Part shown: positions 2,707 to 51,825 of the stretch, piece by piece | Position numbering within the stretch: position 1 is the first letter of the stretch | Layout: each line of letters opens with the position of its first letter | Assembly (NCBI GenBank): GCA_031459855.1 | Contig: JAVKHP010000001.1 | Location: 1,825,842-1,889,841 of the forward strand | Direction: 5' to 3' | Source of the DNA: Candidatus Fervidifonticultor primus | GTDB taxonomy: Bacteria; Sysuimicrobiota; Sysuimicrobiia; Sysuimicrobiales; Humicultoraceae | Length of the DNA: 64,000 bases | Notes under the pieces: generated by a model | The model's database searches: none | What the model was told of the DNA's origin: nothing | The model's input: the letters and a program-made list of their open reading frames with translations, nothing else | Made by a program: the position numbers and the translations under genes

Positions 2707-3648
2707 TCAGTCGTAGGTGATGCGCGGGTCGGCCGCCGCGTAGAGGAGGTCGACGGCCAGGTTGAGCAGCGTGAACATCGTGGCGATGGTGAGCACGGCG
2801 CCCTGCACGATCAGCAGGTCCCGCGCGTAGATGCCCTGCAGCAGCAGCCGGCCCAGGCCCGGCAGGCCGAAGACCTGTTCGATGACGATCGTGCCGCCCA
2901 GCAGGAAGCCCAGCTGCAGGCCCGCCACGGTGAGCACCGGGATCAGCGCGTTGCGCAGCACGTGCCGCCGGAGCACGGTGACCTCGCCCAGGCCCTTGCT
3001 GCGGGCGGTGCGCACGTAGTCGCGCCGCAGTTCGTCGAGCACCGCCGCCCGCACCAGGCGCGTGAGCGCCGCCGCGCGCTCCAGGCCCAGGGCCAGCGCC
3101 GGCAGCGCCAGGTGCCGCAGCCACTGCGCCGGATCGCGCGCCAGCGCCGCGTAGCCCTGCAGCGGGAAGACGGGCCACGCCGCGGCGAAGCCCAACAGCA
3201 GGAGGATCCCCAACCAGAACGTCGGGATCGCCAGCCCCACCTGCGACCCCGCCAGTGCCGCCAGGTCGAGCGCCGACCATGCGCGTCGGGCCGCCGCGAT
3301 GCCCACCGGGAGCGCAACGCCCAGGGCCACGGCCATCGCCGCCATCGCGACCGACACCGTGACGGGCAGCCGCTGGGCGAGCAACCGTGTCACGGGCTCG
3401 CGGTACGCGACCGAGGTGCCCAGGTCGACGCGGGCCAGCCGGCCCAGCCACTCGACGTAGCGCACCACCAGCGGCCGGTCGAGCCCCAGCTCGCGCCGCA
3501 GCCGACTGAGCTCGTCGGGGCGGGCATCGACGCCCAACATGATGGTGGCCACGTCGCCCGGGACCACCTGGAGCGCCAGGAACGTGGCGGTGGCGACCAC
3601 GAGGACCGTGGGCACCACCGCCAGCAGCCGCCGGAGGACGAACGGCAT
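2707..3648 (-). CDS. ABC transporter permease, DppB/OppB family
   Basis: 313 aa; N-terminal MPFVLRRLLAVVPTVLVVATATFLALQ, internal RTARSKGL..VLRRHVLRNALIP (EAA-like loop), C-terminal ..DPRITYD typical of DppB. Confidence 0.85.
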   Translation of the reverse strand: MPFVLRRLLAVVPTVLVVATATFLALQVVPGDVATIMLGVDARPDELSRLRRELGLDRPLVVRYVEWLGRLARVDLGTSVAYREPVTRLLAQRLPVTVSVAMAAMAVALGVALPVGIAAARRAWSALDLAALAGSQVGLAIPTFWLGILLLLGFAAAWPVFPLQGYAALARDPAQWLRHLALPALALGLERAAALTRLVRAAVLDELRRDYVRTARSKGLGEVTVLRRHVLRNALIPVLTVAGLQLGFLLGGTIVIEQVFGLPGLGRLLLQGIYARDLLIVQGAVLTIATMFTLLNLAVDLLYAAADPRITYD

Positions 3649-5273: not shown

Positions 5274-6091
5274 CACCTGCGTGCCCTCCCTTCGGTGGCG
5301 TCGCGTCCCTGCGCGACGCCCAGCCCCGCCCGGGCGAGCGACCGATGGGCGGCGTCGACCGTCGCGGTCTCCATGACGACGGTCTGCACCCACGGGGGCA
5401 GGTCGCGCCCCAGGTCGACGGCCTGGCTGATCTCGCCGTCGCCCCAGGCGAGGTGGTCGTCACGCCGTCCGCGGTTGTCGTTGACGTGCACGTGCACCAC
5501 GTCCCGGTCGGCGAGCAGAGCCCGCAGCACGTCGGGGCCGGCCAGGTAGGCGTGGGCCACGTCGAGGCACAGGCGCAGCGCCGGATGGGCCACCCGCTCG
5601 AACAGCTCGCGCAGCTCCTCGTAGCGCACCCCGTACGCGAACCCGATGCGGGGCGCACCATCGGCCAGCGCCACCGCCGGCATGTTCTCGAGATAGAGGT
5701 GGATGCCGGCGGCCGCCGCCGCGTCGGCGCACCGGCGCAGCGAGGCCACCGCGTGCGGCAGTCCGGTCTCGCGTGGGAAGACCTCCTGGTAGGGCGGGAG
5801 GCCCGGGTGCACGACCACGCCCCGCGCGCCCAGCCGCGCCGCCTCGTGGATCGTCGCGATCACCTGCGCCACCGACTCCTCACGAATGCCCGGGTTGGTG
5901 CTGGCGATGTTGATGCCGAGGATGGGAGCGTGCAGCGAGACCACGCGGCCATGGGGCCAGGGCACGGGCGGCGGCCACGCGTGGGGCGGCTCACAGAGGA
6001 TCTCGATGCCAACGTCCGCGGCCAGCAGGTCTGCGGCCGCCTCCTGGAGCGGCCGACGGACCGCCGCAAAACTGGAGATCGCCAGATCCAC
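5273..6091 (-). CDS. Sugar phosphate isomerase/epimerase (xylose isomerase-like TIM barrel)
   Basis: 272-aa ORF with ..GIHLYLENMP..HVHVNDN..D.HL.WG.GEI.. motifs typical of the AP endonuclease 2/xylose-isomerase-like TIM barrel family. Confidence 0.7.
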   Translation of the reverse strand: MDLAISSFAAVRRPLQEAAADLLAADVGIEILCEPPHAWPPPVPWPHGRVVSLHAPILGINIASTNPGIREESVAQVIATIHEAARLGARGVVVHPGLPPYQEVFPRETGLPHAVASLRRCADAAAAAGIHLYLENMPAVALADGAPRIGFAYGVRYEELRELFERVAHPALRLCLDVAHAYLAGPDVLRALLADRDVVHVHVNDNRGRRDDHLAWGDGEISQAVDLGRDLPPWVQTVVMETATVDAAHRSLARAGLGVAQGRDATEGRARR

Positions 6092-6410
6092 GTCTCACGC
6101 TCCTCACCCCGCCCGGTGCCTGGCGGGTCGGGTCGTCATGCAGCCCCACTGCAGCATGGTGCCGCCGCTGAGTGGCACCCTGCCGGGTGCGGGACGGTCC
6201 GCGTCATCATGGGGCGCAATTGCACACGCTCCGTAGACGCCGGTCCCCCGCCGACCCGGGTCCGGGAGTAATCATACCACCACGGCCCTGGTGGCCGAAC
6301 GCGCCTTCCTGCACCCTGTGCACACCCCGTCTGCACCGGCGCCCGGGCGCGATGCATCCGAGGCACAGGCCTCCGTGCGTCTGGTCGGGCGCCGTTCTCC
6401 GCGCGCCTGT

Positions 6411-7367
6411 TCAGGCGGGCTGCAGGTCCGGGTAGCCCGGGACGCCGCCGAGGCCACGGGCTGCGCGCACGGCACGGCGCGTCGCTTCAGCGACCGCCTG
6501 CGCGCAGGCCTCGCCCAGGCCGACGAGGTCGCCGGTGGCGTGCACGCCCGTCGCCAGCGCGAAGACCGTGTCGCCGTCGAACAACGTGTGCGAGGGCGCG
6601 ATCGCCCGCGACAGGCCCGCGTGTCCCTGGACCGCGAGGCGCCAGCACTGCGCCTTGGTGAGCGTCGCGGACGTGGCCACCACGGCCAGGGTGGTGTTGG
6701 TGGCGAACACCGCGTCGGGCGGCCGGCGCAGCAGCGCACGCGCCGCGTCCGCGAAGCCCCCCTCGGGCGCGCGGGCGCCAGCCAGGATCGTCCCGTCTTC
6801 GGCGCGCACATCGCCCAGGGCGTTGACCACCACCAGCGCGCCCACGACCGTGCCGTCGTGCAGGCGCACGCTCCAGGTGCCCACACCGCCCTTCATCGCG
6901 TAGGCGGGCCCCAGGATCTTGCCCACGGTGGCGCCGGTGCCGGCGCCCACGCTGCCCTCGGCCACCGGGCCGTCGGTGGCCTGCTGGCACGCGCGGTAGC
7001 CCATGGCCGCGTCGGGCCGGGCCCGCGGGTCGCCCAGGCCCAGGTCGAAGATCACGGCGCCGCACACGATGGGCACCCGCGCCACGCGGGTGTCCAGGCC
7101 GCAGTCGCGCTCCTCCAGGTAGCGCATCACGCCGTCGGCCGCGGCCAGGCCGAACGCGCTGCCGCCCGCCAGCAGCACGCCGTGGATCCGCTGGACCAGG
7201 TTGCCCGGGTGCAGGACCGACAGGCCCAGCGTGCCCGGCGCGGCCCCGCGCGCCTCGCCTGCCGCCGTGGCGCCGCCTTCGCAGAGCACGACCGTGCAGC
7301 CCGTCAGGCCCACGAGGTCGGTCTCGTGGCCCACGCGGATGCCGGGCACGTCGGTGATGGACGTCAT
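6411..7367 (-). CDS. P1/S58 family peptidase (DmpA/L-aminopeptidase D-Ala-esterase/amidase-like)
   Basis: Start at internal MTSITDVPGIRVGHETD..; GLTGCTVVL.., ..ATNTTLAVVATSATLTKAQ.. resemble the DmpA/ArgJ-like self-processing family. Confidence 0.75.
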   Translation of the reverse strand: MTSITDVPGIRVGHETDLVGLTGCTVVLCEGGATAAGEARGAAPGTLGLSVLHPGNLVQRIHGVLLAGGSAFGLAAADGVMRYLEERDCGLDTRVARVPIVCGAVIFDLGLGDPRARPDAAMGYRACQQATDGPVAEGSVGAGTGATVGKILGPAYAMKGGVGTWSVRLHDGTVVGALVVVNALGDVRAEDGTILAGARAPEGGFADAARALLRRPPDAVFATNTTLAVVATSATLTKAQCWRLAVQGHAGLSRAIAPSHTLFDGDTVFALATGVHATGDLVGLGEACAQAVAEATRRAVRAARGLGGVPGYPDLQPA

Positions 7368-31547: not shown

Positions 31548-32453
31548 CTAGCCCGCCGCCGGCCGTCGCTCGCTGCGCTCGCTCCCCAACGCCGCACCGG
31601 CCATGTCGCCCAGCGGTCCGAGCAACTTGGTGAACTCCAGCGGGAAGATGAACTTGGTGGCCGGGCTTGCGCCCAGCGCCTTGAGGGTCTCCAGGTACTG
31701 GAGGGCCATGGTCTTGGCGTCCACGGTCTGCGCCACCTTGAAGATCGTGTCCAGCGCCAGCGCGAACCCCTCGGCCCGCAGGATCGCCGCCTGACGGTCG
31801 CCCTCCGCGCGCAGGATCGCCGCCTGCTTCTCGCCCTCGGCCACCTTGATGGCCGCCTCGCGCTTCCCGTCGGCCTCGGTGACCACCGCACGGCGCGTGC
31901 GCTCCGCCGACATCTGCCGGGTCATCGCCTCCTGCACGTCCTTGGGCGGCAGGATCTCGCGGATCTCGACGGTGGTGACCTTCACGCCCCAGCGCTCGGT
32001 CACCTCGTCGAGCTTGGCGCGCAGTACCTGGTTGATCTGCTCGCGCCGGGCCAGCACGTCGTCGAGGATGATGTCGCCGATGACCGCGCGCAGGGTGGTG
32101 GTGGCCACACCGCGGGCCGCGCCCGCGAAGTCGGCCACCTGGATGACCGAGCTCTCGGGGTCGACCACCTTGTAGTAGATGAGGAAGTCGATGTTGATGG
32201 GCGCGTTGTCGCGGGTGATGCATGTCTGGGAGGGGATCTCGATGAACTGCTCGCGCAGGTCCACCCAGACGGCGCGGTCGACGATGGGGATGAGGAAGAC
32301 GATGCCCGGGCCCTTGCGGCCGATGCTGCGGCCCAGCCGGAAGACCACGAGCCGCTGGTACTCGCGGACGATCTTGATGGCCGCGTTGAGGATCATCAGG
32401 CCGACGATGACGACGGCCGCGGCGTACGTCAGCAGTCCCACGATGTCTGGCAT
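31548..32453 (-). CDS. SPFH/band 7 (stomatin/prohibitin-like) membrane protein
   Basis: Start MPDIVGLLTYAAAVVIVGLMILNAA (TM), then ..IKIVREYQRLVVFRLGR..; coiled-coil AEGEKQAAILRAEG. Confidence 0.8.
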   Translation of the reverse strand: MPDIVGLLTYAAAVVIVGLMILNAAIKIVREYQRLVVFRLGRSIGRKGPGIVFLIPIVDRAVWVDLREQFIEIPSQTCITRDNAPINIDFLIYYKVVDPESSVIQVADFAGAARGVATTTLRAVIGDIILDDVLARREQINQVLRAKLDEVTERWGVKVTTVEIREILPPKDVQEAMTRQMSAERTRRAVVTEADGKREAAIKVAEGEKQAAILRAEGDRQAAILRAEGFALALDTIFKVAQTVDAKTMALQYLETLKALGASPATKFIFPLEFTKLLGPLGDMAGAALGSERSERRPAAG

Positions 32454-32732
32454 GCGCCACCTCCTGGCGGCCTGGGGCGCCACCATAGTTCTGGCTGCTG
32501 GCAGGGTCTTCCTGCGTCGGGCGCTGTGCGGGCAGCACTCCCAGTAGGACGACGCGCGGCTCGCCGCCTGGTCGTCGGGATCGTAGCGGCGCGCCGGCGC
32601 CTGGGCACTCCCGAGGGCTCCCGAGCGGACGGCACGCTGCTGGCCCCCTGCCCCGGGCCGCGGGAAGGGAGCGTAACGCCGTCGGGCGCCGACCAGGGGG
32701 CCGGGGGATACGGCCCGAAGAGGGGAGCGGCG

Positions 32733-33680
32733 ATGTGGTACCTGGGCGTGGACTTGGGCGGGACGAAGATCCTGACGGCGGTCGTAGACGAGACCGGCCA
32801 AGTGGCAGCCCGCGTGCGGGCGCCCACGCCGCAGACCGGGCCGGCCGCGGTGGTCGAGGCCATCGCCGCCACCGCCCAGCAGGCCCTCGAAGCGGCAGGC
32901 CTACCCCGCGGGGCCGTGCGCGCCGCCGGGGTCGGCGCGCCCGGCCCCGCCGATCCCGTCACCGGCACGGTGTTCAGCCCGCCCAACCTCCCTGGCTGGG
33001 GCGACGTGCCGCTGGCCGACCTGCTGCGCGCCCGGCTGGAGGTGCCCGTGGCCGTCGAGAACGACGCCAACGCGGCGGCGCTGGGCGAACACTGGGTCGG
33101 GGCCGGGCGCGGCGTCGACGACCTGCTCTACATCACGGTGGGCACCGGCATCGGCGGCGGGCTCATCCTGCGCGGCCAGCTCTACACCGGCACCTCGGGC
33201 TGCGCCGGTGAGGTCGGCCACATGGTGATCGTCCCCGACGGCCCGCGCTGCGCCTGCGGCCGGCAGGGATGCCTGGAAGCGGTGGCCTCGGGGCCCGCCA
33301 TCGCGCGCGCGGCCCGCGCCGCGCTGGAGGCCGGCCGGCCCTCGGTCCTCTCGGCGGTGGCGGCCGAGGAGCTGGACGCGCACGCGGTGGCCCGGGCGGC
33401 GGTCGAAGGCGATCCGCTCGCGCGCGAGGTCTTCGCCCGCGCGGCCCGCTACCTGGGGCTGGCCGTGGCGAACCTGGTCAACCTGCTCAACCCCGCCATG
33501 GTCATCATCGGCGGCGGCGTGGCCCGTGCCGGCGACCTGCTGCTGGCTCCGGTGCGCCGCATCGTGGACGCCGAGGCCTTCGCGCGGCCTGCGGCGGCGG
33601 TCCGCATCGTGCCGGCGGCCCTTGGGGCGGATGCGGGTGCGCTGGGGGCTGTCGCCGCGGCACGCCAGCGCCTCGCCTAG
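32733..33680 (+). CDS. ROK family glucokinase
   Basis: MWYLGVDLGGTKIL..; ROK motif ..GHMVIVPDGPRCACGRQGCLEAVASG..; 315 aa. Confidence 0.85.
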   Translation: MWYLGVDLGGTKILTAVVDETGQVAARVRAPTPQTGPAAVVEAIAATAQQALEAAGLPRGAVRAAGVGAPGPADPVTGTVFSPPNLPGWGDVPLADLLRARLEVPVAVENDANAAALGEHWVGAGRGVDDLLYITVGTGIGGGLILRGQLYTGTSGCAGEVGHMVIVPDGPRCACGRQGCLEAVASGPAIARAARAALEAGRPSVLSAVAAEELDAHAVARAAVEGDPLAREVFARAARYLGLAVANLVNLLNPAMVIIGGGVARAGDLLLAPVRRIVDAEAFARPAAAVRIVPAALGADAGALGAVAAARQRLA

Positions 33681-44554: not shown

Positions 44555-44704
44555 GGGTCGCGGCGGTCGTGAGTAGTCGTAAGTACAGGAACGTCTGAAG
44601 CGCTAGGGCGTCTGGAGCGCCGGGGCGTAGGGAGGGGAGCGGGGGGCGGCGAATCCCGGGGTGCCCGGCGGGGAGGAGACCGCATGTGGGGTCGCGCGTC
44701 CAGG

Positions 44705-44830
44705 TGACGATGGGTCGACTGCGGTGATGGTCGACCTGGGGCGGCCGACTGTTGCGATGGTCGCCCGGAGCATGGTCGGCCGGGCGATGGTCGATCGTGG
44801 TATGGCCGATAGTCGCGCTGGTCGGCCGGC
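44705..44830. repeat. ~7 copies of a 15-22-bp motif (rATGGTCGmCC) in the nagA-xpt intergenic leader
   Basis: gatgggtcgac, gatggtcgacc, gatggtcgccc, catggtcggcc, gatggtcgatc, tatggccgata, ctggtcggccg; the middle four have a strict 15-bp period. Seen directly. Confidence 0.55.
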
Positions 44831-44867
44831 GCGCAGATCGACCGGAGCGACGGGGGAGCCGGAGAGC

Positions 44868-46414: not shown

Positions 46415-47326
46415 ATGGCCGATGCGCTGCCCAAGGTCCGGTCGCTGGCTGCCGCTTCCCGGCGGGCGCCGCAGGCCCAGGGGTTCTGGCAGCTGGCGCT
46501 GCGCCGCTTCCTGCGCCACCGCATGGCGGTCGCCGGCCTGGGGGTGTTCACCGCCGTGGCGGTGATGGCCCTGGCCGCGCCCGTCCTGGCGCCGCACAGT
46601 CCCACGGCGATCGACGCCACCGCGTTCCAGGCGGCCCCCTCGGCTCGCCATCCGCTGGGTACCGACAGCGTGGGGCGCGACGTCCTCAGCCGGCTGATCT
46701 ACGCGGCGCGGGTCTCCCTCTCCGTGGGCGTGCTGGCGGTGGGGATGTACGTGGTCATCGGCACCGCGGTGGGCGCCATCGCGGGCTACGCCGGCGGCAC
46801 GGTGGACCTGCTGCTCAGCCGCGTGATGGACGTGGTGCTCTCGTTCCCGCCGCTGATCATCATCCTGTTCGCCGTTAGCGTCTTCGGGCGCCCCAGCCTG
46901 TGGAACGTGATCGTGGTGCTGGGCCTGCTGGGCTGGCCACCGGTGGCGCGCCTGGTGCGCGGCCAGGTCCTGGCGCTGCGCCAGCAGGAGTTCGTGCTGG
47001 CGGCGCGGGCCTGCGGGGCCGACGACCGGCTCGTGGTGATCCGCCACCTGCTCCCCAACGCCATGGCGCCGGTGCTGGTGGCGGCCACGTTCGGCACGGC
47101 CAACGCCATCCTGGTGGAGGCCGCGCTGTCGTTCCTGGGGCTGGGGGTGCAGCCGCCGACCCCGTCGTGGGGGAACATGCTGACCGACGCCCAGTCGCTG
47201 ACGGTCCTCGAGCGGATGCCGTGGCTGTGGCTGCCGCCTGGCTTCATGATCCTGATCTCGGTGCTGGCCATCAACTTCGTGGGCGACGGGCTGCGGGACG
47301 CTCTCGACCCCGGCCTGCGCCTGTAG
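46415..47326 (+). CDS. ABC transporter permease, DppC/OppC family
   Basis: ..HPLGTDSVGRDVLSRLIYAARVSL..; ..ALSFLGLGVQPPTPSWGNML.. Confidence 0.85.
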   Translation: MADALPKVRSLAAASRRAPQAQGFWQLALRRFLRHRMAVAGLGVFTAVAVMALAAPVLAPHSPTAIDATAFQAAPSARHPLGTDSVGRDVLSRLIYAARVSLSVGVLAVGMYVVIGTAVGAIAGYAGGTVDLLLSRVMDVVLSFPPLIIILFAVSVFGRPSLWNVIVVLGLLGWPPVARLVRGQVLALRQQEFVLAARACGADDRLVVIRHLLPNAMAPVLVAATFGTANAILVEAALSFLGLGVQPPTPSWGNMLTDAQSLTVLERMPWLWLPPGFMILISVLAINFVGDGLRDALDPGLRL

Positions 47327-47493
47327 GGATGTCGCGACCCTGGCGAGCGTGGAGGGCGCGCCGGCTCACCCCGGCCTGCGCCTGGAGCGATGTCGCGACT
47401 CCTGGCGGCCATGGAGGGCGCGCGGTGGATGCCCGGCCTGCGCCTGTGGCGATGTCGCCGGGAGAAGGTGCCGGCGGTGCGGCCGTGGGGGGG
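47310..47493. repeat. 61-bp tandem repeat x3 (ccggcctgcgcctgkrgsgatgtcgcgac.cctggcg...ggagggcgcgc..) beginning inside the last codons of the DppC-like gene
   Basis: Copies at ~47310, 47371, 47433. The first two are about 85% identical over 50 bp, the third is degenerate after 27 bp. Copy 1 contains the gene's DPGLRL-stop. Confidence 0.65.
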
Positions 47494-49329: not shown

Positions 49330-50715
49330 GTGGACGACGTCCTGCGCTACCTCGACGCTCACTTCGACGCCCACCTCGCGCGCGTCCAGCAGTTCGTCCG
49401 CCAGCCCAGCATCAGCGGCGAGGGCACCGGCATGCGCGAGATGGCCGAGCTGGTGGCCGACAGCATCCGCCGCCTGGACGGGAGGGCCGAGCTCGTGCCC
49501 ACCGACGGCTGGCCGGTGGTCTACGGCGCGGTGGAGGCCGGGGCGCCCAAGACCCTGCTCCTCTACGGCATGTACGATGTCCAGCCCGTGGAGGGCGAGC
49601 AGTGGCTGGTGCCGCCCTTCGCGGGCGAGGTGGTGGACCTGCCCGAGCTCGGGCCCAGCGTCGTGGCCCGCGGCGTCTACAACACCAAAGGGCCGCTCGC
49701 CGGGCTGTTGTTCGTGCTCGAGGCCATCCAGACCGTGCGCGGGCGCCTGCCGGTGAACGTCAAGTTCGTCGTGGAAGGGGAGGAGGAGCTCGGCAGCCCC
49801 CACCTGCCGCAGTTCGTCCATGCGACCCGCGACCGCCTGGGCGCCGACGCGACCTACTTCGCCTTCTACAACCAGGACCGCCACGGCAAGCCGATGCTGT
49901 GGCTGGGCGTCAAGGGCATCCAGTACTTCGAGATCGCCTGCCGCGGCGGGGCGTGGGGCGGTCCGCGCACCCGCGGCGTGCACGGCAGCAACGCGGTCTG
50001 GATCGGCAGCCCCGTCTGGCGGCTGCTGCGCGCGCTGGCCACCATGATGGACGACGACGAGCAGATCCAGATCGAGGGCTTCTACGACGACGTGGCCCCG
50101 CCCAGCGCCGAGGACGAGGAGTTGCTGGCGGCCCTGGCCCGCACCTTCGACCCGGCCACGGAGCTGTGGATGTGGGACGCCGAGCGGTTCAAGTACGACC
50201 TGACCGGCGCTGCCCTGCTGCGCCGCTACCTCTACGACCCCACGCTGAACATCGACGGCATCTGGGGCGGCTACACGGGGCCCGGCACCAAGACCCTGCT
50301 GCCCCACGAGGTGCGCGTGAAGATGGACGTGCGCCTGGTGCCCGACATGCAGCCCGAGCGCGTGCGCCAGCGGATCCGCGCGCACCTCGAGCGCATCGGC
50401 CGCGGCGACCTGGAGGTGCACTTCTACGAAGGGTACCCGCCGGCCAAGACCAGCGTGCGCGCGCCGGTCGTCCAGGCGCTGGTCCGCGCCATCCGGGCGC
50501 TGGGCTTCGAACCCGAGATCTGGCCCCACATCGCCGGGTCGGCGCCGTTCTACCTGTTCCGCGAGGTGTTGGGCCAGCCGTTCGCCATGGGCGGCCTGGG
50601 CCATGGCGGCCGCCCCCACAGCCCCAACGAGTACGCCACCCTGGACGGGATGCGGCTGTTCGCGCGGTCGGTGGCGCGGTTCCTCTACGAGTACGCGGAG
50701 GACGCGGCGCGCTGA
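49330..50715 (+). CDS. M20 family dipeptidase/peptidase
   Basis: ..LLLYGMYDVQPV.., ..ARGVYNTKGPLAGLL.., ..VVEGEEELGS.., ..MGGLGHGGRPHSPNEY.. are M20 motifs. GTG start. Confidence 0.8.
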   Translation: MDDVLRYLDAHFDAHLARVQQFVRQPSISGEGTGMREMAELVADSIRRLDGRAELVPTDGWPVVYGAVEAGAPKTLLLYGMYDVQPVEGEQWLVPPFAGEVVDLPELGPSVVARGVYNTKGPLAGLLFVLEAIQTVRGRLPVNVKFVVEGEEELGSPHLPQFVHATRDRLGADATYFAFYNQDRHGKPMLWLGVKGIQYFEIACRGGAWGGPRTRGVHGSNAVWIGSPVWRLLRALATMMDDDEQIQIEGFYDDVAPPSAEDEELLAALARTFDPATELWMWDAERFKYDLTGAALLRRYLYDPTLNIDGIWGGYTGPGTKTLLPHEVRVKMDVRLVPDMQPERVRQRIRAHLERIGRGDLEVHFYEGYPPAKTSVRAPVVQALVRAIRALGFEPEIWPHIAGSAPFYLFREVLGQPFAMGGLGHGGRPHSPNEYATLDGMRLFARSVARFLYEYAEDAAR

Positions 50716-50731
50716 CGGACGTCCACGCCGC

Positions 50732-50901
50732 GGCAGGCACGTGCGCCCCGCGGCGAGTCCAGGACGGCAGGCACGTGCGCCCCGCAGCGCGTCGAGGGCG
50801 GAAGGCACGTGCGCGCCACAGCGAGTCCATGGCGGCAGCCACGCGTGCCCCACACGCGTCCACGGTAGCAGCCACGCGTGCCCCATGGTACGAGCTGACG
50901 G
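50732..50901. repeat. 34-bp tandem repeat x5 (strict period), each unit carrying an 8-bp palindrome (GCACGTGC in units 1-3, CACGCGTG in units 4-5)
   Basis: ggcaggcacgtgcgccccgcggcgagtccaggac / ggcaggcacgtgcgccccgcagcgcgtcgagggc / ggaaggcacgtgcgcgccacagcgagtccatggc / ggcagccacgcgtgccccacacgcgtccacggta / gcagccacgcgtgccccatggtacgagctgacgg. It lies in the convergent gap between the M20 peptidase and the DMT transporter. No unique spacers, so not a CRISPR. Confidence 0.7.
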
Positions 50902-50961
50902 CCCGGCGCCCCCTGCCCGCTGCGCTGCGCGGTCGGGCCCGATGGCCCGCCAGGCCAGCGG

Positions 50962-51825
50962 TCATCCCAGCGCCAGCGCGATCAGGCCCGCCACCATGCT
51001 GCCCGCCGCGGCCAGCCGCCGCGGCGCGTCGCCTTCGGCCAGCACCCTGGTGCCCAGCACCGTGGCCACCAGGATGCTGATCTCACGCGCCGGCGCCACG
51101 TAGCTCACCGGCGTGAAGACCATGGCGGTCAGCACCAGGAAGTAGGCCAGCGGCGCCAGCAGCGCGATCCCCACGATCTCCACGCGATGGGCTGCCCAGT
51201 GCCCGCGCACCTCGTGCCACCGCGCCAGCGCCACCGGCGCCAGCAGCGCCGCGCAGCCCAGGTTCGAGCCCCAGTCGTACACCAGCGGCGGCACGCCCAC
51301 CTGCGCCACGCCGTACTTGTCCCACAACGTGTAGGCGGCGATGGTGGCGCCTGTGAGCAGGCCGTAGCGCACCGCCCACGGGTTGGTGCCGGCGCGGGCC
51401 AGCACGCGCGTCCCGCCCGTGAGCACGAACACCCCGCCGACGATGAGCGCCGCGCCGACCAGTGCCAGGGGCGTCGGGCGCTCGCCCAGCACGGCCATCG
51501 CGGCCAGTGTCGCGAGCAGCGGCCCGGTGCCGCGCGCCAGTGGGTAGACCAGGGACAGGTCCCCCGTCTGGTAGCCCCGCTGCAGGCTCACGAAGTAGAC
51601 CACGTGCAGGAGTGCCGACCCTGCCATGAAGGCCACGCCCGTGGCGCTCACCGACGCGCGCTGCACGACCAGCAGCACCGCCACTGCCGGCGTGTAGAGC
51701 ACGCCCGACAGCAGCGTGAACAGCCACACGAACGGCGCGCCGCCGCCCGCGCGCTTGGCCAGCAGGTTCCAGACCGCGTGGATCGCGGCCGCCGCCAGGA
51801 TGAGCGCAAGCGCCACCGCGGTCAT
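50962..51825 (-). CDS. DMT superfamily (EamA-like) transporter
   Basis: 287 aa, ~10 TM segments, duplicated EamA-like halves (..LYTPAVAVLLVV.., ..AYFLVLTAMVFTPVSYVAPAREISILVATVLG..). Confidence 0.7.
   Translation of the reverse strand: MTAVALALILAAAAIHAVWNLLAKRAGGGAPFVWLFTLLSGVLYTPAVAVLLVVQRASVSATGVAFMAGSALLHVVYFVSLQRGYQTGDLSLVYPLARGTGPLLATLAAMAVLGERPTPLALVGAALIVGGVFVLTGGTRVLARAGTNPWAVRYGLLTGATIAAYTLWDKYGVAQVGVPPLVYDWGSNLGCAALLAPVALARWHEVRGHWAAHRVEIVGIALLAPLAYFLVLTAMVFTPVSYVAPAREISILVATVLGTRVLAEGDAPRRLAAAGSMVAGLIALALG

Follow-up and report, generated by a model that had tools for sequence, protein, structure and literature searches.

A 34-bp tandem repeat between convergent genes of an uncultured Armatimonadota genome is probably a strain-variable minisatellite seeded on an ancestral hairpin

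The gap between the convergent M20 peptidase and EamA transporter genes in the window, the 64-kb stretch of DNA analyzed here, contains a tandem array with a 34-bp period. This array is probably a minisatellite (VNTR) that is specific to its locus and variable between strains, generated by slippage, seeded on an ancestral 3'-end hairpin, and without a dedicated function. Our reading draws on the repeat itself, the non-coding nature of the sequence that holds it, its restriction to one locus, a difference in copy number within the species, a parallel 18-bp VNTR at the same position in a sister clade, and the homology of the first repeat unit to the hairpin found there. Neutrality of the array is, in our assessment, most likely, and a dedicated regulatory device is unlikely.

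The M20 gene is the final member of an oppB-oppC-SBP-M20 cluster, and its product is 100% identical to MDR7555637.1, a protein of an uncultured Armatimonadota MAG encoded on a 3.15-Mb contig. It converges on an EamA/DMT-family transporter gene, the homologues of which are 287 aa long (the call in the source record, MDR7555638.1, is 298 aa), and the two genes are separated by 246 bp, the gap after the M20 peptidase in which the earlier note had correctly placed the repeat. The window has a GC content of 73%. GC content by codon phase is flat in the gap (0.77/0.78/0.80), whereas both flanking genes show a phase signal (M20, 0.72/0.50/0.96; EamA, 0.74/0.52/0.93). Three observations mark the gap as non-coding: it has no codon-phase signal, its repeat period of 34 is not divisible by 3, and its length differs by 159 bp net from that in a same-species relative. 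On the first two of these we rejected coding potential.

TRF reports the repeat at 50730-50884 with a period of 34, 4.6 copies, 82% matches, no indels, and a score of 170. No score above 87 arose when the window was simulated 40 times with a first-order Markov model, and the array is thus real and beyond chance. The units start at 50730, 50764, 50798, 50832, and 50865, in steps of 34, 34, 34, and 33 bp; all are direct and abut head-to-tail, and unique spacers are absent, which bears out the view that this is not a CRISPR. Two sub-types can be distinguished: U1 to U3 are mutually identical at 27-30 of 34 positions, and U4 and U5 match U1 to U3 at only 17-21 of 34. The array consists of four units plus a stub, not five. 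Thus, of the strict 34-bp tandem repeat of five units described in the earlier note, the tandem repeat and its period stand, but the strictness and the count do not, given the 82% match, the 33-bp last step, and the truncation of U5. The pattern of identities (U1=U2>U3, U4~U5) agrees with local duplications that occurred step by step, with subsequent decay of the copies.

Table 1. Features of the convergent M20-EamA gap in the window, with the 18-bp alleles found at the same position in sister-clade contigs
Feature	Position or contig	Strand	Description
M20/M25/M40 metallopeptidase gene	49330..50715	+	Pfam Peptidase_M20 (2e-21), M20_dimer; stop TGA 50713-50715
Non-coding gap	50716..50961		No codon periodicity; homologous gap in relatives 87-179 bp
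Imperfect 30-bp palindrome across U1	50726..50755		CGCCGCGG..GCAC/GTGC..CCGCGGCG; folds as hairpin
Unit 1 (U1, type A)	50730..50763	+	GCGGCAGGCACGTGCGCCCCGCGGCGAGTCCAGG
Unit 2 (U2, type A)	50764..50797	+	30/34 identical to U1; no hairpin (z +1.6)
Unit 3 (U3, type A)	50798..50831	+	29/34 identical to U1; no hairpin (z +0.65)
Unit 4 (U4, type B, 33 nt)	50832..50864	+	21/34 identical to U1; CACGCGTG plus second CACGCGT 12 nt on
Unit 5 (U5, partial type B)	50865..50885	+	21-nt stub, 19/21 identical to U4 start, unrelated beyond
Segment missing in L015	50775..50934		160 bp: the greater part of U2, U3-U5 in full, and ~50 bp of tail outside the repeat
Tail common to L015	50935..50961		GGGCCCGATGGCC...CAGCGG; 10-bp palindrome TCGGGCCCGA at 50933-50942
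EamA/DMT-family transporter gene	50962..51825	-	Pfam EamA (2e-13); stop codon 50962-50964
18-bp unit, 1 copy	L006, L007		
18-bp unit, 2 copies	L004, L016, L020		
18-bp unit, 3 copies	L019, L021		

The decisive evidence comes from relatives at this locus. The closest of them, L015 (GCA_964526945.1), encodes an M20 protein that is 97% identical to that of the window and has the same gene order, amidohydrolase, phosphoribosyltransferase, oppB, oppC, SBP, M20, EamA, and fumarase. Nucleotide identities of 96.8% for the M20 gene, 98.0% for the SBP gene, and 97.0% for the EamA gene indicate a same-species level of relatedness. The gap in L015 is 87 bp long and reads TGA GGGACGTCCACACC GCGGCAGGACCGTGTGCCCCCCGGCGAGTCCAGG GCGGCAGGCAC GGGCCCGATGGCC... 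It contains 1.3 copies, namely one unit and the 11-nt start of a second (GCGGCAGGACC..34 bp..GCGGCAGGCAC), followed directly by the conserved tail. The unit has GACCGTGTGC in place of GCACGTGC and holds no CACGTG palindrome, and the motif GCGGCAGG.C is found twice, 34 bp apart. This arrangement is either a substrate for slippage or the product of a contraction. The comparison of copy number between related strains, which had been proposed as a check, therefore returns a difference, 4.6 in the window versus 1.3 in L015. The 34-bp form has only two known alleles, and its "variable number" is based on this one comparison together with the parallel series in the sister clade described below. The window and L015 differ by a single 160-bp indel (159 bp net), not by a clean change in the number of units. 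The extra tail of the window resembles the gap of the more distant relative L008, and this L008-like tail suggests that the indel reflects a deletion in L015.

A parallel series of alleles is found at the same position in a sister clade, members of which have M20 proteins ~94% identical in amino acid sequence and EamA proteins ~95% identical to those of the window. Here, a tandem 18-bp unit, GCGCCGCGGCA[C/G]GCCCCC, is present in one to three copies, located between the M20 and EamA genes at 5870-5915 in L006, 2956-3033 in L020, and 1640-1735 in L019. Several of these contigs encode identical M20 proteins. The repeat is followed by GCGCCCCGCGTGCCGCGGCC, which together with one unit forms a perfect hairpin with a 12-bp stem, the 18-bp unit being its 5' arm. 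When folding was compared with that of shuffled sequences, this hairpin reached -35/-37 kcal/mol (z -3.5/-3.1), and 0 of 200 shuffles folded as well. In the multi-copy alleles, the sole 3' arm is able to pair with any copy of the 5' arm. In the one-copy allele, two occurrences of CCCCGCGCC already lie 18 bp from each other. Like the motif repeated at 34 bp in L015, this is the kind of short direct repeat on which slipped-strand mispairing acts. Other relatives were uninformative for the gap, because the M20 gene is followed by a DJ-1/PfpI gene (L005, 83% M20) or by an inserted luciferase-like gene (L009-L012), or because the neighbor after the EamA gene is different (L025). In L009-L012, more distant relatives with an EamA identity of 89%, the inserted gene, for a luciferase-like monooxygenase, lies between the EamA and M20 genes (5978-6898), which makes the convergent gap a place where whole genes, too, are inserted or lost.

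The hairpin of the sister clade has a recognizable counterpart in the window. A 27-mer of the L006 hairpin, comprising the 5' arm and loop, finds its unique match in the window at 50726, in U1, with 4 mismatches, and the next-best site among the ~128,000 window positions compared has 6 mismatches. This match identifies U1 as the homologue of the sister-clade hairpin and as a remnant of the one that occupied the ancestral convergent gap. As a palindrome, U1 is not special: the window contains 160 short-loop inverted repeats of similar size, mostly within genes, and we rejected that argument. U1 is nonetheless predicted to fold, with a hairpin that begins 11 nt past the M20 stop codon (-21.7 kcal/mol and z -2.5 on the + strand; -21.3 kcal/mol and z -1.6 on the - strand). 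On the + strand U4 gives a modest hairpin in which its two CACGCGT copies pair (-15.1 kcal/mol, z -1.9), U5 is unremarkable (-10.1 kcal/mol, z -0.61), and U2 and U3 fold worse than shuffles (both -8.1 kcal/mol). On both strands, the gap as a whole is about as stable as its dinucleotide shuffles (z +0.53 and -0.03), and the whole-gap folds of L015, L019, and L020 are likewise unremarkable.

Because only U1 and, weakly, U4 beat their shuffles, the array is not a stack of hairpins. This bears directly on the suggestion in the earlier note of a stack of terminator hairpins, which in its functional form would be a 3'-UTR element that terminates or stabilizes the converging transcripts of the M20 operon and the EamA gene, with copy number tuning read-through. 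The location of the array, immediately after the M20 stop codon and in a convergent gap, is as such a stack would have it, and U1 is a real hairpin with a very strong homologue in the relatives, so that the hairpin idea holds for that one unit. There is also a precedent in the clustered REP hairpins of E. coli, where REPs between convergent genes are reported as terminators and stabilizers (bioRxiv 10.64898/2026.03.23.713779). However, the extra units add no such structure: U2 and U3 do worse than shuffles, U5 does about equally well, and the whole gap has z-scores near zero on both strands. A promoter and terminator consensus scan of 50300-51400 returned no sigma-70-like promoter and 0 hairpin-plus-T-run terminators, a T-run is absent from both strands of the gap, and Rfam gave 0 matches, both at gathering thresholds over the whole window and in E-value mode over 50650-51000. 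Moreover, the same-species relative L015 does without 3.3 of the units. We therefore regard a functional hairpin stack as unlikely. Known bidirectional hairpin terminators resemble the ancestral structure, a symmetric GC-rich hairpin with a 12-bp stem between gene ends, of which U1 keeps a weaker form, but the stem here lacks flanking U/A tracts. Indeed, of the GC-rich stem-loop and U-tract that define an intrinsic terminator, the gap has the stem-loop at U1 only and no T-run.

The palindromes that had drawn attention to the array are present where they were expected, one per unit and in two versions, GCACGTGC at 50737, 50771, and 50805, and CACGCGTG at 50840 and 50873. Perfect palindromes of at least 8 bp occur at 9.3 per kb of the window, and because 21% of random 34-mers drawn from it hold one, 8-bp palindromes are unremarkable in this sequence. 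Those in the array, moreover, arose only once or twice; duplication of the unit carried them along as passengers, so that they do not count as independent events. Although the two sub-types differ by two substitutions at the palindrome, each has one of 8 bp there, and its retention could be a hint of selection, counter to which the purine/pyrimidine alternation of the tract makes palindromes likely.

The same palindromes underlie a second proposal, that the array presents sites for a dimeric DNA-binding protein on its CACGTG/CACGCGTG cores, in the manner of iterons or operators. Five evenly spaced perfect 8-bp palindromes, at one position in the unit in both sub-types, are compatible with this proposal. 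Against it, the orthologous unit of L015, whose allele has 1.3 copies, lacks the palindrome and reads GACCGTGTGC at this place, and no CACGTG/CACGCGTG-type core is found in the sister-clade units; roughly one in five random 34-mers would offer such a palindrome; and the site lies between two gene ends rather than at a promoter. In addition, 34 bp of B-DNA correspond to 3.2 helical turns, so that successive sites would be presented on different faces of the helix. We thus consider an array of dimeric binding sites highly improbable. A caution follows for readings made from the letters of the DNA: a 73%-GC genome is rich in 8-bp palindromes and in long imperfect inverted repeats, and a chance palindrome inside a duplicated unit gives the appearance of a designed array.

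The unit is confined to one locus within the sequence searched, which comprised the 64-kb window, ~139 kb of related loci, and three collections. When the five units were combined into an nhmmer profile, the array was its only hit in the window (the next candidate had E = 0.57), and in the ~139 kb the profile picked out the orthologous L015 unit and, apart from that, only loci that had been fetched with the query 20-mer itself. That 20-mer, GGCAGGCACGTGCGCCCCGC, was used for exact scans, which miss diverged copies. In one representative genome for each of 185,579 species, a collection in which the source genome gave no self-match, it has 3 single exact matches, in unrelated Actinobacteria; in metagenome contigs it has 2, both in one unrelated, apparently coding sequence; and a degenerate form of the 20-mer has 2 single matches in viral contigs. 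These are single chance matches in unrelated, apparently coding sequence. The repeat is accordingly unique to this locus across the window, the related loci, and the genome, metagenome, and viral collections, a finding that the earlier note had named among those that would speak against it. A few dispersed copies in the other 3.09 Mb of the source genome would be compatible with this result.

This distribution bears on the possibility that the array is a cluster of a dispersed element, REP/REPIN-like or MIRU-like, that is mobile within the genome. The 34-bp unit, its extragenic 3' site, and its palindromic core do resemble REP or PU elements, which are 30-37 bp long (PMC2884548), and, like the REP/PU/BIME elements of enterobacteria and pseudomonads, the array follows a gene end and lies between convergent genes. 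However, those elements are dispersed in their hundreds, their orientation usually alternates, and each of them forms a hairpin, in contrast to the single locus, uniformly direct units, and mostly hairpin-free copies seen here. REP families typically have one copy per ~4-10 kb. Here, 64 kb contain 0 other copies, none is present in the 139 kb of related loci, and no collection yields multi-copy matches. The single-copy orthologue at the same locus in relatives further argues that the repeat arose in place. The REP-like reading that the earlier note had offered is thus very doubtful. A possible likeness to 34-bp recombinase sites of the loxP, FRT, or dif kind was set aside, given that L015 does not conserve the arms and that the surroundings showed no sign of a recombinase.

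A remaining concern is that the repeat might be an artefact of MAG assembly, with copies mis-joined or over-expanded. The locus does appear hard to assemble, since several short-read contigs of relatives end in the gap. These are the contigs of L004, L007, L017, L018, and L022, five independent short-read contigs that end within or just before the M20-EamA gap, which fits assembly breaks caused by repeats or by strain heterogeneity. The units of the array, however, differ from one another by 12-50% and hence are individually resolvable, the array spans only 155 bp inside a 3.15-Mb contig, and analogous repeats stand at the locus in independent assemblies. An artefact is therefore extremely improbable. 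Conversely, the array would explain why the short-read contigs of relatives break at this gap.

A locus-specific minisatellite accommodates these observations through a simple series of steps. The ancestral convergent gap would have held a symmetric GC-rich hairpin, and a non-coding 3'-spacer segment of ~34 bp that starts with the 5' arm of this hairpin would have been amplified head-to-tail, presumably by slipped-strand mispairing or by unequal recombination between short direct repeats. The copies would later have diverged into the two sub-types. Sister lineages appear each to have amplified sequence starting at the 5' arm, with a period of 18 bp in one and of 34 bp in the lineage of the window. 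U1 would then be the only piece that is likely to be functional, as a 3'-end RNA hairpin for termination or mRNA protection of the converging transcripts, a role suggested by analogy and one that it may still serve. Among the small variable segments of bacterial genomes, minisatellites are a recognized class (PMC2884548). The array shares with the VNTR loci used for MLVA typing its head-to-tail units of tens of base pairs, its intergenic and locus-specific position, a copy number that varies between close genomes, and short flanking direct repeats that fit an origin by slippage, and in nothing essential does it differ from them. What is particular to this array is the hairpin-arm seed and the amplification of overlapping seeds, of 18 bp and 34 bp, in sister lineages. 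It also resembles MIRU-VNTR loci in having tandem, strain-variable units in the intergenic spacers of gene clusters in a high-GC genome. MIRUs are 40-100 bp long, and one family of them is dispersed over ~40 loci, whereas no second locus with the 34-bp unit was found here.

Tandem repeats that vary between strains are found in two further spacers of the cluster, in both cases with units (16 bp and 62 bp) unrelated in sequence to the 34-bp unit. The first, at 47307-47458, is a 62-bp repeat of 2.5 copies with a TRF score of 209, the maximum in the window. It starts in the last ~20 nt of the oppC-like gene (stop codon 47325-47327), so that the 3' end of the gene and the sequence downstream have been duplicated into the oppC-SBP spacer. 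This spacer is ~300 bp long in the window, 358 bp in L015, and ~70 bp in L009, and in L015 the 62-bp-repeat motif CCCGGCCTGCGCCTGTAGGGATG occurs ~4 times at 2900-3130 with a different spacing. The second, upstream of the phosphoribosyltransferase gene at ~44690-44850, is a degenerate tandem array of 15-17 bp (~GCGATGGTCGGCCGGA), which in L015 has 8.1 copies at 289-443 (TRF score 132; also 48 bp x 3.3) and in the window is present in runs of only 2-3 copies. These repeat-bearing spacers bound the oppB-oppC-SBP block in the window. Upstream of the M20 gene, L016 has an SBP_bac_5 gene, as in the window, and L017 and L020 have the phosphoribosyltransferase gene directly; the block is thus present or absent between very close strains, with identical or near-identical M20 proteins. 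Elsewhere in the window, an apparently coding stretch on the - strand (31548-32900) contains a 33-bp tandem repeat at 31768-31842 (2.3 copies, TRF score 101); since its period is divisible by three, the repeat probably represents the duplication of an 11-residue peptide segment.

Because two sister lineages have independently multiplied the 5' arm, as an 18-bp unit in 1-3 copies and as a 34-bp unit in 1.3-4.6 copies, one may ask whether the hairpin is a recurrent expansion hot spot under selection, with copy number setting, in a heritable and reversible way, the degree of termination, read-through, or antisense interference. We regard this as improbable. If it were true, this control would act between the peptide-uptake/M20 cluster and the EamA exporter, and the two other strain-variable repeats of the cluster might join the same tuning scheme. 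As a probable neutral minisatellite, the array is a possible strain-typing marker for this uncultured Armatimonadota population, with little import beyond the lineage. It would also show, in a small and clean case, how a short direct repeat at the arm of a hairpin can give rise to a minisatellite, here independently in sister lineages with units of 18 bp and 34 bp.
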